From NCBI GenBank assembly GCA_023396915.1, contig JAEWUV010000007.1, positions 82,077 through 146,076 of the forward strand: DNA of 64,000 nt. The letters are read 5' to 3'. The translations under genes and the position numbers were made by a program. The stretch is from Candidatus Parcubacteria bacterium (GTDB lineage: Bacteria > Patescibacteriota > Microgenomatia > UBA12405). The notes under the pieces are model-generated. The model was not told the origin of the DNA. It searched no databases and was given only the letters and a program-made list of their open reading frames with translations. This document shows positions 20,947 through 54,488 of the stretch, piece after piece. The first letter of the stretch is position 1; the number at the start of each line of letters is the position of its first letter.

Positions 20947-20949
20947 CTT

Positions 20950-30464: not shown

Positions 30465-31261
30465 AAGATAAAATCTCTATCATTATTGTCACTTGGAACA
30501 CGGCTCAAATTACTAAAAAATGTGTTGATACTATTAATAAATATTTACCAAATCAGGAAATTATAGTCGTCGACAATGGATCTGAAGATAACACGGTAGA
30601 TATACTCAGAAAAATAAAAAACGTTAAAATTATCGAAAATCACGCCAATTTAGGTTTTGCCAAAGCCAACAACATCGGCCTAAAATACGCTACATCAAAC
30701 TACATTGTCTTTATGAATTCGGATATTGAGCTGATAGATATCAGCTTTATTAAAATGATTAATTATCTTAAAATCAATTCCGATATCGGTCTCATTGGAC
30801 CAAAATTTTTAAACCCTGACTTAACCCCCCAAGCCTCTGTTTTTCCACCTCAAACTGCTCTTAACGCTTTCAAAGAATTTTGGTTAGGTAAAAAAGACGC
30901 CTATTCTAAATATTTTCCCAATACTAAAAATCCCATTGAAGTTTCCTATATTTCCGGTGGTTGCATTATTACCAATAAAAAATTTTTTGAAAAAATCGGC
31001 AAATGGAATGAAAAATATTTCTTTTACTTTGAAGACATGGATCTCTGTCGTCAAGTTAGACTTTTCGGCAAAAAAATTATTTTCTTTCCGGAGTGTCAAG
31101 TCATTCATCGCCACGGAGCCAGTGGTAAAAAACTAGCCGACAGTCAAAATCAATGGCGTCGTCTTGTTCCCAGTAGCATTAAATTTCATGGGTTTTTAGA
31201 GCATTATTTTATCAACTTTATAATTTGGTCCGGTCAAAAATGGCAAAAATTAAAACATTAA
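30461..31261 (+). CDS. GT2 glycosyltransferase
   Basis: ISIIIVTWNTAQIT...VVDNGSEDNT...FMNSDI. 266 aa. Confidence 0.8.
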   Translation: MKDKISIIIVTWNTAQITKKCVDTINKYLPNQEIIVVDNGSEDNTVDILRKIKNVKIIENHANLGFAKANNIGLKYATSNYIVFMNSDIELIDISFIKMINYLKINSDIGLIGPKFLNPDLTPQASVFPPQTALNAFKEFWLGKKDAYSKYFPNTKNPIEVSYISGGCIITNKKFFEKIGKWNEKYFFYFEDMDLCRQVRLFGKKIIFFPECQVIHRHGASGKKLADSQNQWRRLVPSSIKFHGFLEHYFINFIIWSGQKWQKLKH

Positions 31262-34216: not shown

Positions 34217-35865
34217 AAACAAAAATACTCCTCATTTTAATAATAATCGTCGGAGCTTTTCTGAGATTTTATAAATTAGGTACTTTGCCCAACTCATATT
34301 CTCCCGATGAATTATCCCAAGCTTATACCGCCTACTCAATTCTACAAACCGGCAAAGATGAGTGGGGGAACAGTAACTGGTTGAATTTACGTTCCTTTGG
34401 TGACTACAAACCACCCCTGCAAACCTTATTAATGATTCCTTCAGTTAAAGTTTTTGGATTAACCCCCTTCTCTGCTCGTTTTCCCAATGCTTTTTTATCC
34501 GTCTTTACTATTCTTCTGACTTATCTAATCGCTGATATCTTATTTAAAAACAAAAATATTTCTCTTGTAAGTGCCCTTTTTATATCCATTTCGCCCTGGG
34601 CCCTACCTATGTCTCGAATTGCCCTCGAAGCTAATTTATTAATCTTTATAATTTCACTGGCTTTTTATCTCTGTTTATTGGCCCAAAACAAAAATAATAG
34701 TTTATTTTTTATCTTATCAGCCATATTTTTTGGCCTCAGTCTTTTTACTTATCATTCAAGTAAAATTTTTACTCCATTATTTTTAATTCTTCTGATAATT
34801 TTTCAAAAAACTTATAGACAACCCAAAAAACTTGTTTTATTTTTAATAACTTTTTCTCTTTTCCTATTTACTCTGTTCTGGACTAACTCCCAAATCAAAA
34901 CTAACCGCACCGGAGACATTGCTATCTTTAATCCCACTGACAAATGGAGTTATGTTTCAAACAGCCAATTTGAAATCACTCAAAACGGATTACCTTATTT
35001 TTTAACCAAACCTTTCTACAATAAAATTACCTATTTATATGAAACTTTTAGCACAAGTTACCTTTCCTATTTTTCTCCCCAATTCTTACTTACTCAAGGT
35101 GCCGGCGAAACCACCTACGGTATGATTCCCGGATATGGAGTCTTAGGGTTGATTCCTTTCTTAGGTTTACTTTTTTGTCTGATTCTATTGATCCAAAAGA
35201 AAGTTACAAAAGATTCAAATAATATAATTTTTATATTTTTGGCCATCCTAATCCCTCCATCAATTGCCGCAATTGCCAAGGGCAGTTACTCTGCCAACAG
35301 AGTTTCTTTGATGACCCCCTTTATTCAAATTCTTTCTGCTGTTGGGTTAAGTTTTTTTATCAAAAATTTACCCCAAAAATTCCAAAAAATCTCCTATTCT
35401 ATATCTTTAATACTGTTTTTTAGTCTAAATAGTATCTTTTTAATCCGCTATTTTTATCAGGGTAATCAAATTCTAGCCGAAGGCATGCTCTATGGTCATA
35501 AACAAGCCAATGAATACATTCAATCCCATTCAGCATCACAAATTATTTACTCCCGAAAACTTTCAGAACCGCAAGCTTACGTCAGTTTCTTTAATCATAT
35601 AAATCCGCTCATCACTCAATCAGAATCTAGTAATTGGCTAGAATACCAAACCAAAGGCTTATCTTTTCTTGATCAATTGGGAGAATACAAATTAAGTAAT
35701 TTTATTTTTAGGGAAATTAATATTCCCAGTGACAGTCAACTTCCAAATACTCTTATTATTGGTCGCCCAGAAGAATTTAGGGATATCAAACCCGATTACA
35801 TTATTTATTATCCTAATCACTCTCAACTAAAACCGGCAATCTACATTTATCATACCAAAATATGA
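34213..35865 (+). CDS. ArnT/PMT-family GT-C glycosyltransferase, paralog 3
   Basis: LRFYKLGTLPNSYSPDELSQAYTAYSILQTGKDEWGN...FGDYKPPLQTLL. The ATGA stop/start overlaps the previous gene. Confidence 0.8.
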   Translation: MKTKILLILIIIVGAFLRFYKLGTLPNSYSPDELSQAYTAYSILQTGKDEWGNSNWLNLRSFGDYKPPLQTLLMIPSVKVFGLTPFSARFPNAFLSVFTILLTYLIADILFKNKNISLVSALFISISPWALPMSRIALEANLLIFIISLAFYLCLLAQNKNNSLFFILSAIFFGLSLFTYHSSKIFTPLFLILLIIFQKTYRQPKKLVLFLITFSLFLFTLFWTNSQIKTNRTGDIAIFNPTDKWSYVSNSQFEITQNGLPYFLTKPFYNKITYLYETFSTSYLSYFSPQFLLTQGAGETTYGMIPGYGVLGLIPFLGLLFCLILLIQKKVTKDSNNIIFIFLAILIPPSIAAIAKGSYSANRVSLMTPFIQILSAVGLSFFIKNLPQKFQKISYSISLILFFSLNSIFLIRYFYQGNQILAEGMLYGHKQANEYIQSHSASQIIYSRKLSEPQAYVSFFNHINPLITQSESSNWLEYQTKGLSFLDQLGEYKLSNFIFREINIPSDSQLPNTLIIGRPEEFRDIKPDYIIYYPNHSQLKPAIYIYHTKI

Positions 35866-37463
35866 AATCCAAACTTCCAATATTTTTTATTCTCATTTTA
35901 GGATTTATTCTCCGGATTATTTTTATCAACCAACTTCCGCCCAGTCCAAATTGGGACGAAGTCTCTCACGGATTTAACGCCTATTCAATTCTTAAAACCG
36001 GACATGACGAATGGGGGACTTTCATGCCTTTAATTTTCAGATGTTTTGGCGATTTTAAACTACCTTTATATATCTATTTAACCGTAATTTCGGTATTTTT
36101 ATTTGGCCTTAACACTTTCTCTGTCCGTCTTGTTTCAATTCTTGCCGGCACCCTTACCATATTTTTCATTTACCTCATTCTCAAAAAGATTTTACTTTAC
36201 CCGTCCGGCAGGCGGGCCAAAAATAATCTCATTCCCATTATCAGCGGCTTCATAGTTTGTCTTTCACCCGGTTCTATTTTTCTTTCCCGAATTGCTCTTG
36301 AAGCTAATCTATTTATGTGTCTTTTTCTAATATCCTTCTATTTTCTTTTATCCAAAAAATACGGCTTAAGCAGTTTTATTTATGGTATCAGTCTTTTTAC
36401 CTATAACAGTAGCCGTGTTTTATTACCCTTTTATTTAACCTGTCTAATTTACCTTTTAATAAAAAGCAAGGTTAAACCCCTAAAAGAATACTTAAAATTT
36501 ATCCCTTTTGTTTTATTATCGCTATTAGCCTTAGCTCAGACCTTAAATCAATCAGGTCAAGCTCGTTATCAATGGGTCTCTATTCTCGACTCCGGCTCGA
36601 TTAATCAGATAAACGAATTACGAGCTACTTATCCCCGAATTTTAGTCAACAAAGTTACCTATTTTACCTTTTCTGCTGTCAAAAACTACCTTAGTCATTT
36701 TAATCCCCAATTTCTTTTTATTAACGGTGGCTCCAACTACCAATTTAATATCCCGAATTTTTATCTAATTAGTCCATTATTTCTACCATTTTTAATATTG
36801 GGTTTAATTTATCTTTTTAAGACTATCAAAAATGACTATTCCAAGATAATCCTCTTTTTCTTTTTAATTTCTCCCATCCCTTCAGCCATTACTCGTGATG
36901 CTCCTCATATTTTACGAAGCATTGTATTTATTCCGTTTAGTATTATAACTATCTCCCTAGGATTTAGTTATTTTGTCAAAAAATTTAAAAAATTATCCTT
37001 AATTTATTTCTCCATCGCCCTTATTACTACCCAAATTTTATTTTGGCCAAAATATTTTACCTACGCCAAGCAATATTCTGCCTCTTGGCAATATGGTTAT
37101 TCTCAGGTGGTTTCGTATATCAAAACTAACTACAACAGTTACGATCAAATTATTTTTACCAAAAAATATGGCGAACCTCACGAATTTATTCTATTTTACT
37201 GGCCCTGGAACTCTGACAATTACCAACACGATACTTCTAAAAATTGGGATTATCACGCTAATTGGTATTGGATTAATGCTTTTAATAAATTCGTTTTCAT
37301 AAATGATTGGGAAATCAAAGGCTATACTCAAAATCTACCTTTAGACAAAAAAATACTTTTAGTTAGCTCTCCAAACAACTATAATCAAACTAACACTAAT
37401 CTTTTGCAAACCATCAATTTTTTAGATGGATCTCCTGCTTTTGAAATCCTGGAAATAAAATGA
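35862..37463 (+). CDS. ArnT/PMT-family GT-C glycosyltransferase, paralog 4
   Basis: NWDEVSHGFNAYSILKTGHDEWGTFMPLIFRCFGDFKLPLYIYL. ATGA overlap with the previous gene. Confidence 0.8.
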   Translation: MKSKLPIFFILILGFILRIIFINQLPPSPNWDEVSHGFNAYSILKTGHDEWGTFMPLIFRCFGDFKLPLYIYLTVISVFLFGLNTFSVRLVSILAGTLTIFFIYLILKKILLYPSGRRAKNNLIPIISGFIVCLSPGSIFLSRIALEANLFMCLFLISFYFLLSKKYGLSSFIYGISLFTYNSSRVLLPFYLTCLIYLLIKSKVKPLKEYLKFIPFVLLSLLALAQTLNQSGQARYQWVSILDSGSINQINELRATYPRILVNKVTYFTFSAVKNYLSHFNPQFLFINGGSNYQFNIPNFYLISPLFLPFLILGLIYLFKTIKNDYSKIILFFFLISPIPSAITRDAPHILRSIVFIPFSIITISLGFSYFVKKFKKLSLIYFSIALITTQILFWPKYFTYAKQYSASWQYGYSQVVSYIKTNYNSYDQIIFTKKYGEPHEFILFYWPWNSDNYQHDTSKNWDYHANWYWINAFNKFVFINDWEIKGYTQNLPLDKKILLVSSPNNYNQTNTNLLQTINFLDGSPAFEILEIK

Positions 37464-39094
37464 AATTTATAAAACAACCTAAAATTTTTCTAACCCTGAT
37501 TTTTTTTGTTTCCTTTTTAATTCGTTCCATTTTTATCTATAAAACCCCTCTTTTGTGGGACGAAGCCTCACTAGGTTACAACGCCTATTCAATTCTTCAA
37601 ACAGGAGGCGATGAATATGGCCAATTTTTACCTCTAATTTTCAAATCATTCGGTGATTACAAGCCCGGATTCTATGTTTATTTATGTCTTCCTTTTGTAA
37701 AACTTTTTGGGCTTAATTTATTCACTGTCAGACTCCCATCTATTTTAGCCGGATCTCTTTTACCTGTATTTCTTTATTTACTCATCAAAAAAATCAGTCC
37801 TAAGAGCCATAAAATTGCCCTTATTGCCGCCTTAGTTGCCACCTTTAACCCTTATAATATCCATTTTAGTAGGGGAGCCTGGGAAACTAATCTTCTCACT
37901 TGTGAATTGGTTTTAGCCGCTTACTTTTTCTATTCCTATCTTCAAAAACAAAAATCTAAATATTTATTTTTCTCTGCCTTAATTTTTGGTCTTTCTTTAT
38001 TTACCTATCAGGCCGGAAAAATGATTAGTCTTTTTCTTGTTTTAATTCTCCTTGCTCTTAACTACAAAAAACTTAGCCTCAAAAAGCTTTTTCTTAACTT
38101 TATCCTCCCTTTAGGAATATTAGCTTTACCTATCGCTTATGGTTTACTTTTTAACAGCAACAGTAATCGCCTCAAAGTAGTCAGTCTTTTTTCTTATCCT
38201 AGATCCGAAGCCGAAACACAGACTATTATTAGTGAAACAAATCAAGTAGATTACAATATTTTTTACAGTCAACCCATGTTTTTTATCCGTAACTTTCTTT
38301 CCCGCTACTTCAATCATTTTTCTCCAAAATTCTTAGCTTTTGAAGGCGACTGGCAAAATCCCCGACACTCAGCTCCTTACATTGGCGTTTTACTTTATCC
38401 TAGCCTTATCTTTCTCTTTATTGGTATTTTTTTTGCTCTAACTCATCTCAAAAAACAACCAATTAATCAGTTTTTTATCTTGTGGCTCTTAGTTTCTCCT
38501 ATCCCCGCTGCTCTCACTCGCGATTCTATTCAATCAGTCCGAGCTATGTCATTTTCTGTTCCTTTAGTCTATTTTATTTCCCTAGGCCTCTTTGCTTTTT
38601 TTGAAAAGTTTAAATCAAAATTAGTTTTATTAGCTATTTTAGTAGCCTATCTGGCCTCATTTATTTATTATGGTGATCTTTACCTAAATCATATGGTCAA
38701 AAAAGCCCCTTATGATTTTCTTTTTGGCTATCAACAAGCTATGGAATTTACTATAAAAAATCAAAATAAGTATCAAAATATCATCTTTACTGATTTTTAT
38801 GGTCAGCCTTATATTTTTTATCTTTTCTTTTCCCAATATTCGCCTCAAATTTATCAACAACAGGCCAATCTTTTAGAAAGTTCGCTAGATACCGGTAAGA
38901 TTGAGTCTTTAGATAATATCCGATTCAGAACACCTGACTTTGAAGCGGTCAAAAACACCCCAAACACCTTAGCTATTTTTTCTCAGGAAGAAATATACCG
39001 ACAGGGAATTGATAAAAAAGATGAATTTAAAAATTTTATTCCTCTAAGCCCAATTGGTAATATTTCTACCTTCTACGCCTATGAAAACCCTTAA
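37460..39094 (+). CDS. ArnT/PMT-family GT-C glycosyltransferase, paralog 5
   Basis: LWDEASLGYNAYSILQTGGDEYGQFLPLIFKSFGDYKPGFYVYL. ATGA overlap with the previous gene. Confidence 0.8.
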   Translation: MKFIKQPKIFLTLIFFVSFLIRSIFIYKTPLLWDEASLGYNAYSILQTGGDEYGQFLPLIFKSFGDYKPGFYVYLCLPFVKLFGLNLFTVRLPSILAGSLLPVFLYLLIKKISPKSHKIALIAALVATFNPYNIHFSRGAWETNLLTCELVLAAYFFYSYLQKQKSKYLFFSALIFGLSLFTYQAGKMISLFLVLILLALNYKKLSLKKLFLNFILPLGILALPIAYGLLFNSNSNRLKVVSLFSYPRSEAETQTIISETNQVDYNIFYSQPMFFIRNFLSRYFNHFSPKFLAFEGDWQNPRHSAPYIGVLLYPSLIFLFIGIFFALTHLKKQPINQFFILWLLVSPIPAALTRDSIQSVRAMSFSVPLVYFISLGLFAFFEKFKSKLVLLAILVAYLASFIYYGDLYLNHMVKKAPYDFLFGYQQAMEFTIKNQNKYQNIIFTDFYGQPYIFYLFFSQYSPQIYQQQANLLESSLDTGKIESLDNIRFRTPDFEAVKNTPNTLAIFSQEEIYRQGIDKKDEFKNFIPLSPIGNISTFYAYENP

Positions 39095-40697
39095 AAAACT
39101 TATCTTACCATTAATTTTAACTATCGCTTTCTTAATCCGAGGTATTAGTATCAACAGCACTCCGGCCTTAAACCCTGACGAAGCCGCTTTAGGTTACAAT
39201 GCCTACTCGTTGATCAAAACCGGCAAAGACGAACACGGGATTTCTTGGCCGCTTCATTTCAAATCATTTGGTGATTATAAACCCGGGGGTTATGTCTACT
39301 TAGATATTCCTTTCATTTACCTATTCGGCCTAAAAACTTTTGCTGTCCGTCTTCCCAATTTAATCCTCTCCATTTTAACTATTTTATTTTTATACAAACT
39401 TGTTTTGCTACTTACCAAAAACTATTTACTATCAGACTTAACCGCTTTTGTTTTAGCGGTCAGCCCTTGGCATATCCACTTCAGTCGAGGAGCCTGGGAA
39501 AGTTCAGCAGCACTTTCTTTTATAGTTATTGGTACCTATTTCTTCTTCAAATCAATCTCAGAAAAATTTTATAAAAATTTCACCCTATTTATTATCTTTT
39601 ATATTTTTTCTCTTTATATTTACCATTCTGCTCGGCTTATTGCGCCTCTTCTAGCCTTAAGCTTGATTATTTTATATTTCAAATTTCTTATTAAAAAATT
39701 ACCCAAATTAATTTTGCCCCTAATTTTGGGTGTTTTATTAGCAATACCTGTTTTATATTCATTTTTAAATAATGGCGGTACCACCCGTATTGGCGGAGTC
39801 GGGTTAACTGCTGATCCGGGGCCAGCTAGTCGCTCCGAAGAACTTCTCAATCAACACCAAGGTGTCAAATTAATTAATCGGGTTATGCATAACAAACGGG
39901 TTTTATATCTCATTTCTTGGGGTGAAAAATATTTTTCCCACTTCGATCTTAATTTCTTAGCCATCAATGGCGATGAGGTTCCTCGATCCAAAGTTCCTGA
40001 AATGGGTCAAATTTATATCTTCGAAATTCCATTTTTAATTTTAGGCATCATATTTTTAATCAAATCTAACTTATTTAGCTCAAAATCAAAAATTTTTATC
40101 TTTCTTTTCCTTTTTATCGCCCCGATTGCTTCCTCCTTAACCTTCCAAGCCCCGTCTGCCCTTAGAAGCCTGGCCATGGTCATTCCACTTTCAATTTTTA
40201 TTTCTTGTGGTATTTTTTATTTTTTCCAACTTACTAAACAAATTAAAATCAAAAAAACTATCTTAATTATATTTGGATTATTTTATCTTTATTCAATTTC
40301 TTATTACTTTGATTCTTATTTCCTTCACTACGCCAAACGTTATCCCTTTGCTTGGCAATATAAATTTGATGAATTAGTCCCTTGCCTCGAACAGGAAAAA
40401 ACAAATTACCAAAATATTTATATCACCAATAAATACGATCAACCCTATATCCTTTTCCTTTTCTTTTCCCAATATCCGCCAACTCAAATTCAATCTCAAA
40501 TCAAACTATCAGAACCTGACCAGTTTGGTTTTTCTACTGTTAATAACTACGATAACTATTATTTTGGTAAAATTAATTGGGATAACATTCCCACAGGTTC
40601 TTTGGTAGTCGCTTCTGACGAAAGCATACCGGAGTTACCTTTTAAAACTATTTACTTTAGTAACGGGCAAGCTGCTTTTAAAATTTATAAAAAATAA
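39081..40697 (+). CDS. ArnT/PMT-family GT-C glycosyltransferase, paralog 6
   Basis: LNPDEAALGYNAYSLIKTGKDEHGISWPLHFKSFGDYKPGGYVYL. ATG at 39081; the ORF track gives 39054. Confidence 0.8.
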   Translation: MKTLKKLILPLILTIAFLIRGISINSTPALNPDEAALGYNAYSLIKTGKDEHGISWPLHFKSFGDYKPGGYVYLDIPFIYLFGLKTFAVRLPNLILSILTILFLYKLVLLLTKNYLLSDLTAFVLAVSPWHIHFSRGAWESSAALSFIVIGTYFFFKSISEKFYKNFTLFIIFYIFSLYIYHSARLIAPLLALSLIILYFKFLIKKLPKLILPLILGVLLAIPVLYSFLNNGGTTRIGGVGLTADPGPASRSEELLNQHQGVKLINRVMHNKRVLYLISWGEKYFSHFDLNFLAINGDEVPRSKVPEMGQIYIFEIPFLILGIIFLIKSNLFSSKSKIFIFLFLFIAPIASSLTFQAPSALRSLAMVIPLSIFISCGIFYFFQLTKQIKIKKTILIIFGLFYLYSISYYFDSYFLHYAKRYPFAWQYKFDELVPCLEQEKTNYQNIYITNKYDQPYILFLFFSQYPPTQIQSQIKLSEPDQFGFSTVNNYDNYYFGKINWDNIPTGSLVVASDESIPELPFKTIYFSNGQAAFKIYKK

Positions 40698-41521: not shown

Positions 41522-42616
41522 ATGGCAAGAAAAATAAATATTGCTATTGATATTTCACCTACTATTGATGGTAATTCTGTCAGAGGCGTTGGTTACTATA
41601 CCCAAAATTTAGTTGATGCCCTCCAAAAAGAAATTAAGACTAATCCTTTATATAAAAATTGGTCAATTGACCTTATCAAAAACAACCAATATCTAAAATC
41701 CAATATCTATCATCTAATTCACTATCCTTATTTTGATCCATTCAAACTCACTCTACCTCGTAATAATAAACCCACTGTTGTTACTGTCCACGACCTGATT
41801 CCCATCCAGTTCAAAAGTCATTTTCCTGTTGGGTTTAAAGGTTGGTTAAAGTGGCATATTCAGAAGTTTCATCTTCGTCGGGTTTCGGCCATCATCACCG
41901 TATCTGAATATTCCAAAAATATAATCTCTAAACTTATTAAATATCCCCTTAACAAAATAGTAGCCACCCATTTGGCGGCTGACGAAAACTTCAAAGTCAT
42001 TTCCGATACTAAACTTTTAAAATCAATTACCCAAAAATATAAATTACCTCCAAAATTTGTCCTTTTTGTCGGCGATATAAATTGGAATAAAAACATTCCC
42101 AATCTAGTCAAAGCCTGTAAAAAATGTAAATTCCCTTTGGTTATTGTTGGGTCTAGCGCCACTAAAACAGATGTCCCTATCCATCCTTGGACAAAAGATC
42201 TTCGTTGGCTTCAAAAACAAGCTAACAAACCAACAACCAAAAAAAATAAAAGACTTATACTAACCGGTTTTGTTTCCGATCAAGAATTGGCCGTTATTTA
42301 CAATTTGGCTACAGTTTATTGTCAGCCATCATTTGCTGAAGGTTTTGGTTTACCACTAGTTCAAGCGATGCAATCTGGTTGCCCGGTAGCCCACGGCTTT
42401 CATACCTCACCTCCAGAAGTTATGGGAGATGTTGGTTTATCTTTTAATCCTCGTTCGGTCGAAGATATTCAATCAGTTCTCAAAAAATATTGGAATGATT
42501 CTAAACTACGTCGAAATCAAAAAATATTAGGCCTATCCCGAAGCCATATATTTAAATGGTCCACCACCGCTCAAAAAACCCTCGCCCTGTATTCAACCCT
42601 AATCCCAAATGAATAA
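41522..42616 (+). CDS. GT4 (GT-B) glycosyltransferase
   Basis: C-terminal FAEGFGLPLVQAMQSGCPV. 364 aa. Confidence 0.75.
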   Translation: MARKINIAIDISPTIDGNSVRGVGYYTQNLVDALQKEIKTNPLYKNWSIDLIKNNQYLKSNIYHLIHYPYFDPFKLTLPRNNKPTVVTVHDLIPIQFKSHFPVGFKGWLKWHIQKFHLRRVSAIITVSEYSKNIISKLIKYPLNKIVATHLAADENFKVISDTKLLKSITQKYKLPPKFVLFVGDINWNKNIPNLVKACKKCKFPLVIVGSSATKTDVPIHPWTKDLRWLQKQANKPTTKKNKRLILTGFVSDQELAVIYNLATVYCQPSFAEGFGLPLVQAMQSGCPVAHGFHTSPPEVMGDVGLSFNPRSVEDIQSVLKKYWNDSKLRRNQKILGLSRSHIFKWSTTAQKTLALYSTLIPNE

Positions 42617-43409
42617 TAATCACTTTATCTCGATAATTGTCCCTGTTTATAAACAAGAAAAAACTATTGCCAAAGACTTAGACAATATTTCTTCTGTTTT
42701 AAAACAAGTTCGCTATGATTATGAAATCATAGTTGTTGTTGATGGTACTAAAACTGACAAATCCTATCAAATTATTAAAAAATTAAAATTTCCTAAAGCA
42801 AAAACTTACGGTTACAAACATAATCACGGCAAGGGTTATGCTATTCGCTATGGTATGGCTAAAACTAAAGGGGATTACATTGCTTTTATTGACTCCGGCA
42901 TGGAAATTGATCCCAACGGTCTTTCTATGATTCTTGAACATATGGAATGGTATAACGCTGATATTATAGTTGGTTCAAAACAACATCCAGCTTCAGTTGT
43001 AAATTATCCTTTCCAAAGAAAAATAATAAGTTTTGGTGGCTATCTGATAGCCAAATTCTTACTTGGAATTAATGTCCATGACACCCAAGCTGGTCTCAAA
43101 ATTTTCCGTCGTCAAGTTTTAGAAAAAGTTCTTCCCCGACTTTTAATCAAAAATTATGCTTTTGATTTAGAAATACTTTCTGTTGCCAATCATCTTGGTT
43201 TTACTAAAATTTACGAAGCCCCGGTTAAGCTTAACTATAACTTCAAAAGTTTAACTCACGCCACTGGTTTTAAAGTTATTTATAGATGTTTAGTTGACGC
43301 ATTAGCTGTTTTTTATCGGCTCCGTATACTTAAATACTACGATGACAAAAACAAACGCAAGTGGGTTTATGACCCTGATTTAGAAATGAGAATTAACACT
43401 GGTCTATGA
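42609..43409 (+). CDS. GT2 glycosyltransferase, Dpm1-like polyprenyl-phosphate sugar synthase
   Basis: ISIIVPVYKQEKTI...VVDGTKTD...FIDSGME. 266 aa. Confidence 0.75.
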   Translation: MNNNHFISIIVPVYKQEKTIAKDLDNISSVLKQVRYDYEIIVVVDGTKTDKSYQIIKKLKFPKAKTYGYKHNHGKGYAIRYGMAKTKGDYIAFIDSGMEIDPNGLSMILEHMEWYNADIIVGSKQHPASVVNYPFQRKIISFGGYLIAKFLLGINVHDTQAGLKIFRRQVLEKVLPRLLIKNYAFDLEILSVANHLGFTKIYEAPVKLNYNFKSLTHATGFKVIYRCLVDALAVFYRLRILKYYDDKNKRKWVYDPDLEMRINTGL

Positions 43410-44386
43410 AATCACCTTTATTTTCAATAATTATTCCGGTTAGACAAACGAACGCCTATCTCAGGGAAACTTTAAAAAATCTTAAACTACAAACTCTTAA
43501 AAATTTCGAAGTTATAGTTATAACCGACAAAATTTCTACATCACCTAACCCTTCACAAAAAAGAAATCTAGGTGCCTCAAAAGCAAAAGGAAAATATTTG
43601 GTCTTTTTTGATGATGACTCATATCCGGCAAAAAATTATTTCAAAAATCTAACCAAGTTAATCCAAAAATACCCTAATTATTCAGCTTTCTGTGGTCCTT
43701 GTCTGACTCCTCCAACAGATAATATTTATCAACAAGCCTCAGGACTTTTTTGGAAAAGTTTTCTCGGTAGCGGTGGGGCCGGAGTTTACCGAAACAGCAA
43801 ACAAAAAGCCAGATTTGTTGATGATTATCCCAGTGTTAATTTAATTGTTAAAAAAACAGATTTTATCAAAGCTGGCAAATTCAATTTAAATTTTTGGCCT
43901 GGAGAAGATACTGTTTTGTGTTTAAATTTAACAAAAAAACTTAATCAAAAAATTTATTACCACCCTTCCTTAATTGTTTACCACCACCGACGGCCTATTT
44001 TAATCAAACATTTACAACAAATTACCCGGTATTCCATCCAGCGTGGTTTTTTTGCCAAAAAATTTCCTCAAACCTCATTTAGAATCGGCTATTTTCTCCC
44101 TTCATTTTTTGTTCTTTACTTAATATTATTAATTATTAATTATTTAATTTTTAATTATTATCTGTTGTATCTTCCATTATATTGTTATTTATCAATATTA
44201 ATTCTTACCTTTATTTCATTTGTTTTCCAAACTAAAAAAATATATCTTTCTTTTCTCTCTATAATCACCATTCCAATAACTCATATTTATTACGGTATAC
44301 TATTTCTGCATGGCTTATCCAAAAAAGAAGTCAAATTCAAAGCTCATCAAATCAACCAAAAAACCGGTCAATATATCGGCGGTTAA
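43406..44386 (+). CDS. GT2 glycosyltransferase with C-terminal membrane anchor helices
   Basis: FSIIIPVRQTNAYL...FFDDDS. The C-terminal 90 aa are hydrophobic (FLPSFFVLYLILLIINYLIF...). Confidence 0.75.
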   Translation: MKSPLFSIIIPVRQTNAYLRETLKNLKLQTLKNFEVIVITDKISTSPNPSQKRNLGASKAKGKYLVFFDDDSYPAKNYFKNLTKLIQKYPNYSAFCGPCLTPPTDNIYQQASGLFWKSFLGSGGAGVYRNSKQKARFVDDYPSVNLIVKKTDFIKAGKFNLNFWPGEDTVLCLNLTKKLNQKIYYHPSLIVYHHRRPILIKHLQQITRYSIQRGFFAKKFPQTSFRIGYFLPSFFVLYLILLIINYLIFNYYLLYLPLYCYLSILILTFISFVFQTKKIYLSFLSIITIPITHIYYGILFLHGLSKKEVKFKAHQINQKTGQYIGG

Positions 44387-45800
44387 ATCAGTCGCTATAT
44401 CCTACCCTCCACTTCAATCAAATAAAGGCACTCCTTTTTTGTCTCAAAACCGCCAATTTCAATGGTCCAATACCGGCAACGTTATCTATCCTGTTATTCC
44501 CAGCAGTGCCGCCACTTTATTAAATTCAAAAGGTATTAAAATTTTTTGGGATGACGCTATTGCTCAGGGATTAAGTTTTCAAACATGGCTTAAGAGAATA
44601 AAGCAAAACACCCCTGACTTAATTGCTATTGAAACCAAAACCCCCGTTATCAAACAACACTGGGAAATTATAAAAAAGTTAAAAAAACTATCCTGGAAAC
44701 CCATTGTTGTCCTTATGGGCGATCATGTCAGTGCTTTACCCCAAGAATCCATAAAAAACTCGCCAATAGACTATGTTCTTGTTGGTGGAGACTATGATTT
44801 TCTATTAGACGAATTAATTGATCTAATCAACCAAAATAAGGCTCCGAAAAATAAAATCTTTAAACTCAAAAAATGCCATTCACTTGACTCTCTTCCTATT
44901 ATCGATCGCCAATTAACCCAATGGAACTTATACGCCTACAACAACAGTAACTATAAATATAAACCCGGAGCCTATATCATGTCTGGTCGTGATTGTTGGT
45001 GGGGAAAATGCACTTTTTGTTCTTGGGCAGCACTTTTCCCAGGAAAACAATTTCGTACTTTTTCTGTCCAACATACTATTTCTGAAATTGAAAATCTGGT
45101 CAACAATTTTGGTGTCAAAGAGATTTTTGACGACTCCGGCACTCTGCCTATAGGCAAATGGCTTGATAATTTATGCAAAGAAATCATCAAAAGGGGATTA
45201 AACAAAAAAGTTTCCTTTGGTTGCAATATGCGCTTTGGCGCTTTAACTAAAAAAGAATACCGCTTAATGAAACAAGCTAATTTTCGTTTTATCCTTTATG
45301 GTCTGGAATCAGCTAACCAAAAAACTCTTGATTTTATCAATAAAAACGAAAAAACTAGTGATGCTCTAAAAACCCTTAAAATAGCCAAAGAAGCTGGTCT
45401 AGAACCACATGTTACGATTATGATTGGTTACCCTAATGAAACTCTCACAGATGCCCAAAAAACTTTAAACTTAGGTCGAAAAATATTCAAAGACGGCTTA
45501 GCCGATAGTTTACAAGCCACAATTTTAATTCCTTATCCCGGAACAGCCCTCTTTAAACACTGCCAAAAAAATAATTTACTTTTAACCGAAAATTGGGATG
45601 AATATGATATGCGCCAACCCGTAATAAAAAGTCCAATAGCCCCTAAAACAGAAATTGAATTAGTTCAAAACTTATTTAAAGGTATTTTAACCCCCAAATT
45701 TTTGTTCAAAAAAATTATTTCTATTCGTTCTTTTTCCGACATTAAACATTTATTCAATTACGCTCTTAAATACCTTCAAAAATTAAAAGATTTCTCATGA
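44310..45800 (+). CDS. B12-binding-domain radical SAM enzyme (class B rSAM, candidate sugar C-methyltransferase or other radical tailoring enzyme)
   Basis: N-terminal Rossmann-like B12-binding region (IVVLMGDHVSALPQE...VLVGGDYDF). The cluster motif DCWWGKCTFCSW is Cx4Cx2C, not the canonical Cx3Cx2C. The start codon is uncertain: the ATG at 44310 overlaps the upstream gene by 77 nt. Confidence 0.65.
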   Translation: MAYPKKKSNSKLIKSTKKPVNISAVKSVAISYPPLQSNKGTPFLSQNRQFQWSNTGNVIYPVIPSSAATLLNSKGIKIFWDDAIAQGLSFQTWLKRIKQNTPDLIAIETKTPVIKQHWEIIKKLKKLSWKPIVVLMGDHVSALPQESIKNSPIDYVLVGGDYDFLLDELIDLINQNKAPKNKIFKLKKCHSLDSLPIIDRQLTQWNLYAYNNSNYKYKPGAYIMSGRDCWWGKCTFCSWAALFPGKQFRTFSVQHTISEIENLVNNFGVKEIFDDSGTLPIGKWLDNLCKEIIKRGLNKKVSFGCNMRFGALTKKEYRLMKQANFRFILYGLESANQKTLDFINKNEKTSDALKTLKIAKEAGLEPHVTIMIGYPNETLTDAQKTLNLGRKIFKDGLADSLQATILIPYPGTALFKHCQKNNLLLTENWDEYDMRQPVIKSPIAPKTEIELVQNLFKGILTPKFLFKKIISIRSFSDIKHLFNYALKYLQKLKDFS

Positions 45801-46813
45801 CCCAAGTTTCTTTTATAATTCCCACTCTCAATGCTCAAAAAGTTTTAAGCAAATGCTTAAGTTCTATTAATAAACAAAACTTCCCCAAATCCCTATATGA
45901 GATTCTAATTATAGATGGTGGTTCTACCGACAAAACTTGCACTATTGCTAAAAAATATAATGCAAAAATGCTAAAAAACCCGCTAAAAACCGCCGAAGCT
46001 GGTAAAGCTGTTGGAATTCATCAAGCAAAAGGGGAATATATTTGTCTTCTAGACTCCGATAATATTCTTCCCAACTCAAACTGGCTTAAAAAAATGCTTC
46101 TACCATTTAATCAAAACAACGACATTATTGGTAGCGAACCAATTCAATTTACCTATCGAAAAACTGGCGGAATTACAGAAAGGTATTCGGCCTTAATTGG
46201 TGCCAACGATCCTTATGCTTTTATTACTGGTGTTTATGACCGAAAAAATTATCTCAATAACAAATGGACCAACCTTAAAATAGACCAAATCGATAAAAAC
46301 CAATATATTCAAATCAAGCTTCTTCCTCAACATTCTATACCAACTATCGGTGCTAACGGAACTATTTTTAAAACCAATTTTCTCAAAAAAAATCTAAGAT
46401 CTGACTATCTTTTTGATATCGATATTATTTCCCAGGTTTTAAATCAAAAACAGCGCCCACTTCTTTTTGCCAAAGTTAAAATTGGCATTATTCATACCTA
46501 TTGTGAATCATCAATTAAAAAATTTATAAAAAAACAACACCGTCGCTTGGTCGATTACTACACTTACAAAAATCTACGTCAATACCAATGGCAATCAAAA
46601 AATATTTGGCCCCAAATAAAATTTTTTCTTTATTCTATTTTAATAATCCCTGCTCTTATAGATTCTATTCGTGGTTTTTTTAAAAAACCAGATATCGTCT
46701 GGTTTTTCCATCCGCTATTTTGTCTTATCACTCTTTTAATTTATACTTCTGTTACTTTACAATTTAAACTCGGTTTACTAAAACCAGTTAATCGAAACTC
46801 ATGGCAACAATAG
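45797..46813 (+). CDS. GT2 glycosyltransferase
   Basis: VSFIIPTLNAQKVL...IIDGGSTDKT...LLDSDN. 338 aa with C-terminal TM helices. Confidence 0.8.
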   Translation: MTQVSFIIPTLNAQKVLSKCLSSINKQNFPKSLYEILIIDGGSTDKTCTIAKKYNAKMLKNPLKTAEAGKAVGIHQAKGEYICLLDSDNILPNSNWLKKMLLPFNQNNDIIGSEPIQFTYRKTGGITERYSALIGANDPYAFITGVYDRKNYLNNKWTNLKIDQIDKNQYIQIKLLPQHSIPTIGANGTIFKTNFLKKNLRSDYLFDIDIISQVLNQKQRPLLFAKVKIGIIHTYCESSIKKFIKKQHRRLVDYYTYKNLRQYQWQSKNIWPQIKFFLYSILIIPALIDSIRGFFKKPDIVWFFHPLFCLITLLIYTSVTLQFKLGLLKPVNRNSWQQ

Positions 46814-47802
46814 ATATTATTATTCCCACTTACAACGGTTCTAAATGTATAACCGAAACTCTCAAGAGTATTCTTTCCCAATCTTTCAAAAACTTCCGGA
46901 TAATTATTTGCGATGATGCTTCAACCGACAATACTCTCAAAACAATCAAAAAAATAAAAGATAAAAGAATTTTAATCAAAAGTCATAAAAAAAATCTAGG
47001 TTACTCATTAAATCTAGAACGTGGTCGACATTACACCAAAGCCCCAATTATTTATCTAATGGGTCAAGACGACATAATGGCCAAAGATGCTCTCAGAAAC
47101 ACTCTTAAGGCCTTTAAATTATCCTCTGATATCGGCGCTGTCACTAGACCATATTATTGGTTTGATAAAAATATCAATACCCCTGTTCGGGCCAAAAAAC
47201 AATTAAATCCCAAAAAAGACACTATCGTAAAAATCACCAACAGTCCCCAAAAAGTTATTCGCGTTTTTGAAACTTTAGACCAACTTTCAGGATTAGCCTA
47301 CAGAGCCAAATTTATGAAAACTCCTTTTCATCCGGATATTTTCCCTTGTCATATTTACCCATTTGCCGATATTTTTAGAAACCACCCCGTAGTTTTCCTA
47401 AAAGACTACAATATTGCTGTTCGTATCGCCAGCAGTCAAACCAGAAGTCTGTCCTCTATCTATAACAAATCACCACTTTTAAGCTGGATTGAAATGGTCA
47501 AGTCTGTCTACTCAAAAAAAAGATACCAAAAAATCCAAAAATATTTAGTCAAAAATTTTATTACCAAAAATTATGTTGGCTTGGTTCAACTCAGAAACTA
47601 CGCCAAATATAAATATTTAGTCAGAGAAATTTGGTATTTGCTTAAATTTAATTGGCAAAATCTATTTTCTTTCCAATTTTGGTTTTTCTCTGTCGGCTGT
47701 TTATTAACTCCGTCTTTTATTCTTATCCCCATGGTCGACTGGTACAAAAACAAAATATATTCCCAAGCCTTAACCAACATTAAGTTTAGTTTTAAACTAT
47801 GA
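46801..47802 (+). CDS. GT2 glycosyltransferase
   Basis: IDIIIPTYNGSKCI...ICDDASTDNT...MGQDDI. 333 aa. Confidence 0.8.
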   Translation: MATIDIIIPTYNGSKCITETLKSILSQSFKNFRIIICDDASTDNTLKTIKKIKDKRILIKSHKKNLGYSLNLERGRHYTKAPIIYLMGQDDIMAKDALRNTLKAFKLSSDIGAVTRPYYWFDKNINTPVRAKKQLNPKKDTIVKITNSPQKVIRVFETLDQLSGLAYRAKFMKTPFHPDIFPCHIYPFADIFRNHPVVFLKDYNIAVRIASSQTRSLSSIYNKSPLLSWIEMVKSVYSKKRYQKIQKYLVKNFITKNYVGLVQLRNYAKYKYLVREIWYLLKFNWQNLFSFQFWFFSVGCLLTPSFILIPMVDWYKNKIYSQALTNIKFSFKL

Positions 47803-48821
47803 ACCTACTCCGATGGCTCAAAAACCTAACCGAAACTAATCAGTTTATTTCATCTACTTTTGACAAAATAGCCTCAACCTCTTTATACACAAACATTATT
47901 CAAAATAAAATCAATCAAAACATCTCTAGTCTCAAAAAAAACCGAAACTACAACATCATTATAGAAACAACCAACCTTTGCAATGCTCAATGTATTATGT
48001 GCCCTCACACTACCATGAAACGGTCCAAAGAAATAATGACCGAAAACACCTTTAATATTATTATTGATAAGCTCACTCAAGAAAACATTAACCCTCAAGT
48101 TTTTATCCTTAATGGTTTTGGAGAACCACTTACCGATCCAACAATTTTTAGCCGAATCCAAAAAATAAAAACCACCTTTCCCGATTCAAAAATCAAATTA
48201 TATTCGAATTTAAATTTAGCTAACAAAAAAACAATTCAACGACTTATTAACTCACAACTAGATGAAATTAATGTCAGCTTAAATGGATATAATGCCAAAA
48301 ATTATCAAGAAGTGATGAAACTTGATTACAAAAAAACAATCAAAAACCTTAAAACATTAATTAATATTAAAAATAAAATAAATTCCAAATTAAAAATCAG
48401 AATTTCCATGACATTAGTCAAACAAAACGAAAAAACAGTCAAAAAATTCATCAAAAAATGGAGTTCTCTGGTTGACTCTGTCAGTGTCAATAAAGTTCAT
48501 GATTATAACGGCAGTGTCAAAAATATCACCAACAAATTTAAAATTAATTTTAATAAAAAGACTTTTCCGTGTAGATATTTGTGGGATACGATTACCTTTG
48601 ATGTTAACGGGGAAGTTATTTTATGTTGCCTGGACTATGAATCTCAATATAAATTTGGGAACATTAAATCACAATCAATCAAATCTATTTTCTATTCACC
48701 AAAGTTTAATTTAATTAGGAAACAACATCTCAATTTAAATTCAAAAAAAATTAAAATTTGCCGTCAGTGTTACACTCCATATAAAAATGGAGTTGAATGG
48801 TTATTAAAAAAAATATACTAA
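47799..48821 (+). CDS. Radical SAM / SPASM-domain protein
   Basis: Canonical CNAQCIMC (Cx3Cx2C) cluster plus the GFGEPL SAM-binding motif. The C-terminus carries extra Cys residues (FPCRY...VILCCLDYE...KICRQC) consistent with a SPASM/twitch auxiliary-cluster domain. Confidence 0.75.
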   Translation: MNLLRWLKNLTETNQFISSTFDKIASTSLYTNIIQNKINQNISSLKKNRNYNIIIETTNLCNAQCIMCPHTTMKRSKEIMTENTFNIIIDKLTQENINPQVFILNGFGEPLTDPTIFSRIQKIKTTFPDSKIKLYSNLNLANKKTIQRLINSQLDEINVSLNGYNAKNYQEVMKLDYKKTIKNLKTLINIKNKINSKLKIRISMTLVKQNEKTVKKFIKKWSSLVDSVSVNKVHDYNGSVKNITNKFKINFNKKTFPCRYLWDTITFDVNGEVILCCLDYESQYKFGNIKSQSIKSIFYSPKFNLIRKQHLNLNSKKIKICRQCYTPYKNGVEWLLKKIY

Positions 48822-49963
48822 TGAAAATAGGTCTAGTTTATCACCAATTTCCTCTTTATGCTGGTGGCTCGCATATCCAAGATTTCATCGTCTCATTATC
48901 TAAAAATAAACAAATTCAAAATATCACCTTAATCGCCAAACACTATCCAAAAGTTCCTATTAAACTTCCCAAAAAGATAAAAATAATTTTCATTCCAAAT
49001 ATAAAGATTCCCATATTAGACGATTTATTTTTCATAATATCCTCTTTTTTTGCCATGCTTTTTTCTTCTGATTTTCGAAAGTCTGATTTGGTAAATGTTA
49101 TTTGTGCTCGCGGCATCCCTTCATCATTCCTTTTTACTAAAATTTTTAAAAAACCTTTAATTGCCACCATAGAAATATTAAATGACCCAAAAAACAATCC
49201 ATCACTTTCCAGTAAGGTATCTTACTTTGTTCAAAAATTTTATTACTCAAAAATTCGATTTAATAAAATCATTTGTTGGGCTAAATTTTATTACCAAAAA
49301 TATCTTAAAAAATGGGGGATTGATAAAAATAAAGTTTCTTTTATTTCAAATGGAATCAACACTAGCCAATATCATCCTAAAATTTCAGGCAAACAAATTA
49401 AATACAAATACTCTCCCCATAATCCTCTTATTGTTTTTGCCAAACCACTTTATAAATACAACTTTTTGTCGGTAAAACTTTTGCTTTCTGTTGTTAAAAA
49501 ACTCAAAGACGCCAACTATCCAATTCATTTATTGCTCGGCAAAGGAAAATATCTACCCCAGACTCAAAACATAATTAAAAAATTAAAAATTAAAAAGTAT
49601 GTTTCTTTTATGCCTTTTGTTCCTATGACCGAAATTCCCAAATACATTGCCGCTTCGGATATTATGGTTTTACCTTATCTTTACCACCCCACAGTTTCTC
49701 GTTCACTTTTAGAAGCCATGAGTACCGGAAAAGCCATTCTTACATCAAATTTAGGCGAAATTCCCTATGTTTTAACCCACCAAAAAGACGCAATTGTAAT
49801 TAAACCGACTGTTAATAATTTAGTTAAAAACATTAAATATCTTTTAAAAAATCCAGATATTGCCAAACAATTAGGCAAAAATGCCAGAATTAAATGTCAA
49901 AAGCTATATTCCTTTGATAAAATTAGCAAAGATACTGTTAACTTATATCAAAAAATAGAATGA
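48821..49963 (+). CDS. GT4 (GT-B) glycosyltransferase
   Basis: A TAATG junction starts it at 48821. The C-terminal SRSLLEAMSTGKAIL region is GT4-like. 380 aa. Confidence 0.7.
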   Translation: MKIGLVYHQFPLYAGGSHIQDFIVSLSKNKQIQNITLIAKHYPKVPIKLPKKIKIIFIPNIKIPILDDLFFIISSFFAMLFSSDFRKSDLVNVICARGIPSSFLFTKIFKKPLIATIEILNDPKNNPSLSSKVSYFVQKFYYSKIRFNKIICWAKFYYQKYLKKWGIDKNKVSFISNGINTSQYHPKISGKQIKYKYSPHNPLIVFAKPLYKYNFLSVKLLLSVVKKLKDANYPIHLLLGKGKYLPQTQNIIKKLKIKKYVSFMPFVPMTEIPKYIAASDIMVLPYLYHPTVSRSLLEAMSTGKAILTSNLGEIPYVLTHQKDAIVIKPTVNNLVKNIKYLLKNPDIAKQLGKNARIKCQKLYSFDKISKDTVNLYQKIE

Positions 49964-50604
49964 AAACTTCGGTTATAAATAAAATCAGACATAGTATTGA
50001 ATATTATCGTTTCCATGTTTCATCCAAATTACCGCCATTTTTAAAGCATTATATTTCCAAGTTTCGATTTAAACCTCAAATAGCCAAGGGTGGAACTATT
50101 TATGGCTATACCGTATTCGGACCAAATGTTTCCATCGGAGAATATTCATATCTTCATTCCCCAGTCAGGCTTAGTAATATAAAAATCGGCAAGTTTTGTT
50201 CTATTGCCCAAAACTTCACCGCCATTAGTCATCGTCATAAATACGAAAATTTTTTCAATTATAAATTTTATAATGAAACAAACTCCCCATTTTCCTCAAA
50301 ATTTTATAAAAAACCAGAAGAGGTAAATATTATTAAACCTATCACTATCGGTAATGATGTTTATATTGGTTACAATGTAACAGTTCTTGGAGGGGTAAAA
50401 ATCGGAAACGGCTCTATTATCGCCGCCAATTCATTAGTTAACAAAAATGTGCCACCATACACTATTTATGGGGGAGTTCCGGCAAAATTTATTAAAAATA
50501 AAAAAATCAAAGACAAAGAAATAAAAAATTTTGATTTTAATCAAAAAGATTATTTAACAAAATTAGAAAAACTTCTCAAAAAACTCTATGCGACTGCTGG
50601 TTAA
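49960..50604 (+). CDS. Hexapeptide-repeat (left-handed beta-helix) O-acetyltransferase
   Basis: Repeats IGKFCSIAQNFTAI...IGNDVYIGYNVTVLGGVKIGNGSIIAANSLV. The size and architecture match the CatB/Vat/WbbJ group. Confidence 0.8.
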   Translation: MKTSVINKIRHSIEYYRFHVSSKLPPFLKHYISKFRFKPQIAKGGTIYGYTVFGPNVSIGEYSYLHSPVRLSNIKIGKFCSIAQNFTAISHRHKYENFFNYKFYNETNSPFSSKFYKKPEEVNIIKPITIGNDVYIGYNVTVLGGVKIGNGSIIAANSLVNKNVPPYTIYGGVPAKFIKNKKIKDKEIKNFDFNQKDYLTKLEKLLKKLYATAG

Positions 50605-53510: not shown

Positions 53511-54488
53511 TCACATTACCATTTCCTTAAAAAACTTCCCCAGCTTATCTTCACTGTGTCTTAATCTCATATTCTTCGCCTCTATAGTAGCAATGTCTGC
53601 TACCACAGTTTTAATAGACTTATCCTTAATCATCTTAACTAACTTAGCATGTTCTAATTTATAGAAGTCCAACACCTTTTTAAATATTTTTTTGTCTAAT
53701 TTCAATACATCAGCCATCAGCACTAAATCAAAAGGAGAATTACACTTTAAATATTTTTTAAAAATCTCTAGATAACCCCGCTGAGTTGCGTCCTTAACTT
53801 CATTTGCTGTTGCCAATATATTAGTCATTAATATTTTTTTGGCTTTACTTTGGTTATACGCCTCTACCATTCCTGTTGGTAAAAAATTAGGCAAAACCGA
53901 GCCATAAGTAGTCCCTGGGCATATAATTATCACTTCTGCATTCTTCAAAGCATTAACCGCCTCTTTATTAGCCCTTACCTGAGGATTCAACCAAATTTCC
54001 ACAATTCTATCATCAGACATCCGCAAATCATCAATAAAATTTTCCCCTTTATATTCCTTACCTGAAACAGTCTTTAGACAGATATTTGATAAACCCAAAG
54101 ACACCGGAATCACTTCACCTTCCAGCTTAGCTCCTGTTAATTTAGAAAACAAAGCGTCAACCATTCCCAAATCACCCTCTTTTTCCGACAAAAATTGAAA
54201 AAAAGTATTTCCAAAATTTCTTCCTCTACCGTCACGATATCTTAATATTTCATCCCAAAGTTCTTTCTGTTTCCCATCATTCCACAAAGAAATTAATGAT
54301 CTCCAATAATCCGAAAAAGCCAAAACCCCACCTCTTTCATCAGTCCGAATTCGTCCACTATCACCGCCACTATCAAAAGTAGTCACTACCGAGCTTATAT
54401 TTCTAAAACCAGCTCTAATCAAAGCCTGATTAACCACCGGCATAGCCGTGCCACCACCGACAGTACAGATTCGTGTTTTCAAATCCAT
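53511..54488 (-). CDS. YvcK/UPF0052 (CofD-like) family protein
   Basis: The N-terminal ICTVGGGTAMPVV glycine-rich loop and the overall 325-aa size match the YvcK / gluconeogenesis-factor family. Confidence 0.7.
   Translation of the reverse strand: MDLKTRICTVGGGTAMPVVNQALIRAGFRNISSVVTTFDSGGDSGRIRTDERGGVLAFSDYWRSLISLWNDGKQKELWDEILRYRDGRGRNFGNTFFQFLSEKEGDLGMVDALFSKLTGAKLEGEVIPVSLGLSNICLKTVSGKEYKGENFIDDLRMSDDRIVEIWLNPQVRANKEAVNALKNAEVIIICPGTTYGSVLPNFLPTGMVEAYNQSKAKKILMTNILATANEVKDATQRGYLEIFKKYLKCNSPFDLVLMADVLKLDKKIFKKVLDFYKLEHAKLVKMIKDKSIKTVVADIATIEAKNMRLRHSEDKLGKFFKEMVM

Follow-up and report, generated by a model that had tools for sequence, protein, structure and literature searches.

The window analysed here, 64,000 nucleotides of DNA from a Candidatus Parcubacteria bacterium (contig JAEWUV010000007.1, positions 82,077 to 146,076), encodes a 496-residue radical S-adenosylmethionine (SAM) enzyme between two genes of glycosyltransferase family 2 (GT2). 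Sequence comparison places the protein in a widespread, uncharacterised orthologous family marked by a widened loop between the cysteines that would bind the iron-sulfur cluster (CWWGKC-x2-C-x-W or longer). The preferred reading, to which a probability of roughly 0.55 is given, is that an active enzyme of the class-B (B12-binding) type acts with the linked GT2s to tailor a glycan intermediate. The domains, the conservation of the motif, the fold and the linkage of the genes were established directly, and from them we infer the substrate, the use of a cofactor and the reaction. The enzyme represents a known class in a variant form that is widespread but uncharacterised and that belongs to a conserved module of glycosyltransferases, and its motif is less novel than first thought.

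Cysteine loop and family spread

The gene (Table 1) begins with an ATG at 44310 and overlaps the preceding GT2 gene by 77 nucleotides; no other standard start codon was seen in this open reading frame (ORF) 5′ of the conserved first β-strand, and the long, Lys-rich N-terminus of the protein is common to many homologues. The same 77-nucleotide overlap occurs in nine close related loci, and more distant loci often have a 4-nucleotide overlap of the ATGA type between the GT2 and the radical SAM gene, which suggests that translation of the pair is coupled. The radical SAM core matches PF04055 with 63.1 bits (E = 4.7e-17, cutoff 29.5), and chance is no explanation for the gene: its closest homologues score E values of 6e-287 to 1e-209. 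Equivalents of the SAM-binding motifs can be located, and G331, S334, G373 and E377 in the core are invariant throughout the family. The AlphaFold 2 (AF2) model (mean pLDDT 80, pTM 0.83), whose weak regions are confined to the N-terminal tail, a portion of the first loop and the Cys loop (modelled free of cofactor), consists of a five-stranded Rossmann-like domain of the B12 type, a partial TIM barrel and a helical C-terminal cap. Its best match in the Protein Data Bank (PDB) by Foldseek is AprD4 (6fd2; E = 9e-17, TM-scores 0.70/0.76), followed by OxsB, TsrM, MgmA, CysS and TokK, all of which have the two-domain class-B-type layout. The assignment to radical SAM enzymes of class-B architecture, made in an earlier reading of the sequence alone (the sequence-only reading), is upheld, and the core appears intact from its conserved motifs.

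The stretch DCWWGKCTFCSW (residues 228-239) has cysteines at positions 229, 234 and 237 and so reads Cx4Cx2C, with a spacing one residue above the canonical Cx3Cx2C; an aromatic residue precedes the third Cys (C234-TF-C237), and W239 is invariant among close homologues. C229, C234 and C237 are predicted to carry the [4Fe-4S] cluster, and the structure of OxsB is a precedent for their spacing. The sequence-only reading had advised a check of the reads for a 3-nucleotide indel and had proposed that the spacing, if real, marks a distinct subfamily. Of 120 close homologues, which are 62-88% identical and align with a mean column identity of 68%, 119 keep Cx4Cx2C at the same place; those with a name are mostly from Candidatus Shapirobacteria. 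Orthologues were also compared in 77 loci fetched with 10-kb flanks from the genomes of other species (47-76% identity); Cx4 is present in 72, Cx7 (CWWRKDGGC) in five and Cx3 in none. Sequencing error is ruled out as the source of Cx4, because the motif is conserved across independent assemblies. The only point that would speak for an insertion artefact or a decaying gene is that some distant relatives lack the Cys triad, but with the motif identical or nearly so in these homologues and orthologues, the ORF intact and all SAM motifs conserved, the chance of either is negligible. The relatives in question (P0134, P0139, P0142, P0146 and P0148) are full-length and 34-38% identical, and have lost all three cluster cysteines (e.g. 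RDSDWGQSSLGSA); they could be paralogues without catalytic activity.

The 77 loci also contain 24 paralogous class-B radical SAM genes (23-31% identity), every one with the canonical Cx3Cx2C, and across nearer relatives the spacing between the first and second Cys is 3, 4, 7, 9, 10 or 17 residues. The nearest outgroup (28-34% identity) has the canonical CPxxCxFC, and 45 of its 53 proteins match the HpnJ model at E ≤ 1e-60; when the family was aligned to this HpnJ-like outgroup with hhalign (probability 100%, 28% identity, 464 columns), a one-residue insertion fell in the family's Cys loop. By these alignments the family tolerates, and mostly fixes, an enlarged Cys loop, with Cx4 a true family trait. 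The proposal of a distinct subfamily thus stands insofar as the orthologous family is distinct, but the loop is plastic and the spacing is not new to class B: CX4CX2C binds the cluster in the crystal structure of OxsB (PMC9204698), and GenD1 of gentamicin biosynthesis has been described with Cx4Cx2C (PMC4340712). The natural series of loops, from 3 to 17 residues, lets one ask how much variation in the loop is tolerated.

Relatives are encoded in at least 564 genomes, those of Patescibacteria among them, in a scan of one genome per species, and an exhaustive search of 1.84 billion representatives returned 427 clusters (50% identity) at E < 1e-30. Between phyla the identity within the family is about 50%, and orthologues at this level lie on contigs recorded as Omnitrophota, Dehalococcoidia, Thermodesulfobacteriota, Planctomycetia, Bathyarchaeia, Micrarchaeia and Woesearchaeota (labels as recorded), and on one complete chromosome recorded as Brevinematales. 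Ten loci that are syntenic with Shapirobacteria and 62-76% identical to the gene (L002, L003, L006, L008, L009, L011, L013, L024, L026 and L032) are recorded as "uncultured Gammaproteobacteria" in TPA_asm records of metagenome-assembled genomes, a label that looks wrong. In P0121, P0122, P0125, P0131, P0132 and P0149, an intein is inserted exactly at the third Cys (..CTF/C-intein-HN/CSW), the equivalent of 45018..45020 in the window, where the gene itself has none; the inserts, which comprise Intein_splicing, Hint and LAGLIDADG homing-endonuclease domains, bring the protein to about 900 residues, twice its normal length. Their placement fits a functionally critical site.

Gene linkage, cofactor and proposed reaction

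The genes on both sides of the radical SAM gene are GT2s by Pfam, as the sequence-only reading had it, but the operon is not purely one of glycosyltransferases, since it also contains a second radical SAM gene, with a SPASM domain, and a hexapeptide acyltransferase gene. The GT2 directly upstream is the most consistently linked gene: in 56 of 73 loci a gene of its type occupies that position and strand, and among the 44 distant loci, whose orthologue is less than 57% identical, 28 have it. The GT2 before it, which resembles polyprenyl-phosphate sugar synthases, has weak NCBIfam matches to ArnC, PpgS, PgfS and AglJ, and dolichol monophosphate mannose synthase (5mlz; E = 3.3e-12) as its best solved relative; its type lies within five genes in 52 of the 77 loci, and the type of the GT2 downstream in 43. 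The conserved order of the module is a GT2 like polyprenyl-phosphate sugar synthases, a membrane GT2, the radical SAM enzyme and often another GT2. Genes that recur nearby code for a Wzx-type flippase (19 loci), a PglF-like dehydratase, a sugar nucleotidyltransferase and UDP-glucose dehydrogenase. In 23 of the 77 loci (e.g. L001 14682..15368, minus strand) they include a class I SAM methyltransferase, which is also fused to the C-terminus of the orthologue P0012 (residues 513-653); no counterpart of it was found near the radical SAM gene in the window. The radical SAM/SPASM gene, whose best NCBIfam matches are far below cutoff, is an accessory rather than a fixed partner, because its type is present in only some related loci (L007, L009, L072).

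In the proposed pathway, the membrane GT2s would assemble a lipid-linked sugar at the cytoplasmic side; the enzyme would cleave SAM reductively, and the 5′-deoxyadenosyl radical would take a hydrogen from the lipid-linked sugar. The change to the sugar would come before flipping of the glycan and its use by the GT-C transferases encoded in the window. That the sugar of the lipid-linked intermediate is the substrate is a fairly robust guess, because the nearest characterised relatives by profile (HpnJ), motif (OxsB and GenD1) and fold (AprD4) act on sugar rings (for HpnJ, OxsB and GenD1: PMC9204698, PMC4340712, PMC13459092). Tailoring of a sugar or lipid-linked glycan, which the sequence-only reading had proposed by analogy with GenK and Fom3, is retained as the most reasonable role, but the analogy itself finds little support, as no curated methylase model of the GenK/Fom3/PhpK type comes near its cutoff (PhpK 64 bits against 600). 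Class B also offers precedents for action on lipids (HpnP/HpnR, GrsA/B, Gmm) and on proteins (MgmA, Mmp10), and an enzyme that modifies the lipid part (the polyprenyl carrier or a membrane lipid) or a protein would agree with the lipid- or tetrapyrrole-modifying function of several of the nearest curated models (HpnJ, ladderane, HpnR), with the protein glutamine methylase MgmA as the best solved sequence relative, and with the GT-C/PMT-type enzymes of the window, which could be glycosylating proteins. Such a substrate is nevertheless improbable: the tight coupling across phyla is to GT2 genes and not to genes for lipid synthesis or candidate substrate proteins, and the recurrent neighbours are sugar-nucleotide enzymes and flippases.

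The N-terminal domain is likely homologous to true cobalamin domains, a relationship seen in the nearly full-length alignment of class-B NCBIfam models (HpnJ over residues 60-490, BchE, ladderane B12/rSAM), in the orthologues P0121 and P0125, which clear the Pfam B12-binding cutoff with 34.1 and 39.8 bits, and in the alignment of the family profile with the cobalamin domains of OxsB (E = 1.7e-12) and MgmA (E = 1e-22). The β1-α1 loop ("His loop") has 29 residues in the AF2 model and holds a family-specific invariant QNRQFQW (..SQNRQFQW..); other landmarks are I107-E108-T109-K110 in the β3 loop, G137 on β4, and G159-G160-x-Y162-D163 at the start of α5. Cobalamin-contact motifs have been described as a long β1-α1 loop, G-x-S/T-x-X after β3, a Gly on β4, G-E on α5 and the residue past the Cys loop, and Trp215 of TokK stacks between cluster and corrin (PMC9204698). 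By weak alignment, the equivalents of the contact sites are I107-E108-T109-K110, G137, Y162-D163 and W239 (the position of TokK Trp215). E108, K110, G137, Y162, D163 and W239 are invariant in close homologues, and the residues depart from the reference motifs in having E for S/T and Y-D for G-E. Conservation of these positions favours a functional cofactor site, which may bind cobalamin.

The protein cannot be assigned to a curated family. The best NCBIfam match is HpnJ (TIGR03471) with 133.3 bits against an equivalog cutoff of 577.6, followed by BchE (TIGR02026; 98.3 against 481) and the ladderane B12-rSAM model (90 against 360), and the scores for the C-methyltransferase of ribosomally synthesised and post-translationally modified peptides (64.8 against 282), HpnR (50.9 against 650), AprD4 (NF033070; 39 against 500) and KedN5 (27.7 against 700) are also under their cutoffs. 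Membership in the HpnJ, BchE, ladderane, MJ_1487, PhpK or AprD4 families was rejected, all scores being far under the curated cutoffs. Two names given automatically to homologues were also rejected: "anaerobic Mg-protoporphyrin IX monomethyl ester cyclase" (JGI) is an over-annotation in view of the BchE score, and "YgiQ" is unsupported.

The chemistry leans slightly, and tentatively, towards cobalamin-mediated C-methylation of the sugar, because most characterised class-B enzymes are methylases, the Cys-x-Trp is shared with TokK-type enzymes and MgmA is the closest solved sequence. Nearly as likely is a rearrangement that transfers no methyl group, namely ring contraction, dehydration or epimerisation of a lipid-linked hexose, in which cobalamin, if bound, would be a redox or radical partner and not a methyl carrier; models for it are HpnJ (proposed to convert glucosamine to a cyclitol ether), calditol synthase and OxsB, whose reaction is a ring contraction (deoxyribose to oxetane). 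HpnJ is the best curated match, with BchE and ladderane also among the nearest profiles, the outgroup is HpnJ-like with a profile alignment of the highest probability, Cx4Cx2C is in register with OxsB (PMC9204698), and the class I methyltransferase that is frequent at these loci, or fused as in P0012, may supply methylation to the pathway instead. A GT2, HpnI, likewise precedes HpnJ, for which remodelling of a lipid-linked sugar ring has been proposed (PMC13459092, PMC9204698). On the other side, the HpnJ match amounts to a quarter of the cutoff, neither an HpnI-like or HpnK-like partner nor hopanoid genes are present in the window, the chemistry of HpnJ is itself a proposal based on a knockout (PMC13459092), the methylase GenD1 has Cx4Cx2C too (PMC4340712), and the invariant Cys-x-Trp is as in TokK-type methylases (PMC9204698).

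Several observations weigh against a cobalamin-using tailoring enzyme, or against parts of that reading. All NCBIfam scores are so far below cutoff that no function can be transferred by homology; the nearest profiles (HpnJ-like, BchE, ladderane) are those of non-methylases, which counts against the lean to methylation; and a pair of the HpnI-HpnJ type was rejected, as the partner GT2 has no HpnI match. Linkage of the genes indicates a shared pathway and leaves sugar, lipid and protein substrates undistinguished. With regard to the cofactor, the Pfam check proposed in the sequence-only reading gave a core above threshold but a B12-binding domain (PF02310, residues 91-159) below it, at 22.5 bits (E = 1.1e-4) against a cutoff of 32.1, and the contact positions are mapped by a weak profile alignment with 50 bits to OxsB. 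Pfam scans of ORFs in the window, in which 59 of at least 80 residues were called, revealed no genes for cobalamin uptake or salvage, and no cobalamin riboswitch or other RNA was found in its 64 kb. AprD4 has the same architecture and binds no cobalamin (PMC12931638), so class-B architecture alone is insufficient for cobalamin use, and the dependence on cobalamin that the sequence-only reading took for granted was overstated.

A radical SAM enzyme independent of cobalamin, with a Rossmann domain that survives as a relic for structure or substrate binding, as it does in the sugar 1,2-diol dehydratase AprD4, would remove the need for a B12 source in an organism with a reduced genome. In its favour, besides the sub-threshold B12-binding match and the lack of cobalamin genes in the window, AprD4 ranks first in Foldseek and ties with MgmA in the profile search (1.8e-22), and homologues of AprD4 and ArsL fall in B12-rSAM similarity networks yet bind no cobalamin (PMC12931638). 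It is nonetheless a rather unlikely explanation: the AprD4 sequence aligns with the family profile over the radical SAM domain only (profile positions 206-413), whereas OxsB and MgmA align on the N-terminal domain also; the residues at cobalamin-contact positions are invariant; AprD4 reaches less than a tenth of its model's cutoff with this protein, and its PCRFYCPYP lacks both the Cx4Cx2C spacing and the trailing Trp; and related Shapirobacteria loci encode further class-B paralogues, of which at least one, in L020, matches the B12-binding model strongly (55 bits). Should these enzymes use cobalamin, the lineage would have to import it. Up to three extra class-B paralogues (23-31% identity, Cx3Cx2C) were observed in L021, L028, L024, L027 and L043, and one conserved type of paralogue has a 19-residue, Cys-containing stretch ahead of the motif (C..TEYG..T..YISSYGCPHRCAFC); radical tailoring seems to be common in glycan clusters of the candidate phyla radiation (CPR).

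Class-B radical SAM enzymes perform some of the hardest C-H functionalisations known, and to our knowledge the characterised ones come, with few exceptions, from antibiotic, cofactor and lipid pathways. The family described here is widespread and strongly conserved, and its link to a membrane glycosyltransferase lies in cell-envelope glycan islands of organisms with surfaces that have hardly been studied. Solving the reaction would reveal a new sugar modification of the CPR envelope and test the dependence on imported cobalamin. A broader and doubtful extension is that the GT2-radical SAM pair is a module shared across phyla that installs an unusual sugar (C-branched, ring-contracted or deoxygenated) on a lipid carrier for the envelope; the module could then be enriched in ultra-small or reduced-genome lineages (CPR and contigs labelled as DPANN), besides its occurrence in Omnitrophota and Dehalococcoidia, and the sugar, if ring-contracted, could be carbocyclic or cyclitol-like. 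On this extension, and if the enzyme is truly cobalamin-dependent, tailoring of envelope glycans would be an unrecognised reason for the need of these symbionts for external B12.

The glycan island around the gene

By Pfam scans, the window (G+C content 28-35%) is almost wholly occupied by machinery for cell-envelope glycans. This G+C content and the Shapirobacteria among the named homologues make an origin in the CPR plausible. It contains at least nine paralogous PMT_2/GT-C membrane transferases and one GT87 (8410..40697, 58469..60241), about a dozen GT2s, four GT4s, a Wzx flippase, an ABC-2 exporter pair, UDP-galactopyranose mutase, a DegT aminotransferase, a hexapeptide acyltransferase and an LCP (LytR-CpsA-Psr) ligase. 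The PMT_2/GT-C genes form an unusually dense array of transferases that depend on polyprenyl-phosphate sugars, and among them are ORFs of 440-590 residues with no Pfam match (at 12211, 15362, 26024, 27309, 31225 and 35862). Another ORF of 496 residues (13914..15404) was considered as a radical SAM paralogue and rejected, as it encodes a Wzx-type flippase. The LCP glycopolymer ligase and FtsE/FtsX are encoded at the start of the window (1756..2790 and 4178..5753, plus strand), in keeping with a glycopolymer attached to the wall as one of the island's products. A protein with RhuM-family and Fic-DOC domains (54494..55471, minus strand), which may be toxin-like or a mobile insertion, is encoded inside the island beside a CofD/YvcK-like gene (53511..54488).

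Table 1. Features of the radical SAM gene and its operon, in coordinates of the 64-kb window
Feature	Coordinates	Strand	Basis
GT2 like polyprenyl-phosphate sugar synthases (dolichol-P-mannose synthase, GtrB or ArnC type), first gene of the module	42609..43409	+	Pfam
Partner GT2, catalytic domain and hydrophobic C-terminal multi-helix region	43406..44386	+	Pfam Glycos_transf_2, 55 bits; C-terminus from translation
Radical SAM enzyme gene, complete ORF, 496 residues, ATG start	44310..45800	+	ORF call
Rossmann-like domain of the B12-binding type (putative), residues 27-175	44388..44834	+	Pfam sub-threshold, profile alignment, AF2 secondary structure
Radical SAM core, residues 227-388	44988..45473	+	Pfam PF04055
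Predicted cluster-binding Cys loop C229-WWGK-C234-TF-C237-S-W239 (Cx4Cx2C, then x-Trp)	44994..45026	+	Kept in homologues; in register with OxsB
SAM-binding motif equivalent FDDSGT (GGE-like)	45126-45143	+	Motif positions
SAM-binding motif equivalent YGLESAN (ribose motif)	45297-45317	+	Motif positions
SAM-binding motif equivalent IMIGYPNET (GxIxGxxxE)	45417-45443	+	Motif positions
GT2 downstream, hydrophobic helices at the C-terminus, often the fourth gene of the module	45797..46813	+	Pfam
Second radical SAM/SPASM gene, same operon	47799..48821	+	Canonical CNAQCIMC motif; SPASM 54.7 bits
Hexapeptide acyltransferase, same operon	49960..50604		Pfam

Comparison with characterised enzymes

A literature search on the family, and on B12 or radical SAM enzymes in CPR glycan clusters, found nothing specific. 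Among solved structures, MgmA (QCMT, the glutamine C-methyltransferase of MCR; PDB 9ccb) is closest by sequence (E = 3e-9 for the sequence alone, 1e-22 for the profile), in an alignment that spans β4 of the cobalamin domain through the radical SAM core, but its motif is the canonical Cx3Cx2C (CPGNCTFC), its substrate is a protein and its context is that of a methanogen. The class-B sugar C-methyltransferases of the GenD1/GenK/MoeK5 type, compared by description only, share the proposed type of substrate, and in GenD1 also the Cx4Cx2C spacing (PMC4340712); MoeK5 clusters with HpnJ in similarity networks (PMC9204698). They belong to antibiotic pathways, in contrast to the cell-envelope glycan island of the window.

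AprD4 (apramycin C3′-deoxygenation; PDB 6fd2) is similar as the top structural match, in size and in having a sugar substrate, but it works without cobalamin (PMC12931638), its sequence likeness is confined to the radical SAM domain, and its stretch at the Cys loop has neither the spacing nor the Trp of the family. HpnJ has the same two-domain architecture and a profile that aligns nearly end to end, but the HpnJ-like outgroup has Cx3Cx2C where the family of the window has Cx4, and the hopanoid context of HpnJ (an HpnI-like GT2, the HpnK deacetylase, squalene-hopene cyclase) did not appear in the scans of the window. OxsB (PDB 5ul2-5ul4) differs in its length of 744 residues with an extra N-terminal domain, in its nucleotide substrate and antibiotic gene cluster, and in being similar at the profile level only (E = 1.7e-12). 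Its CDYSRCTFC is nonetheless in register with CWWGKCTFC, including a basic residue before the second Cys, its cobalamin domain aligns, and it acts on a sugar ring without being a methylase (PMC9204698).

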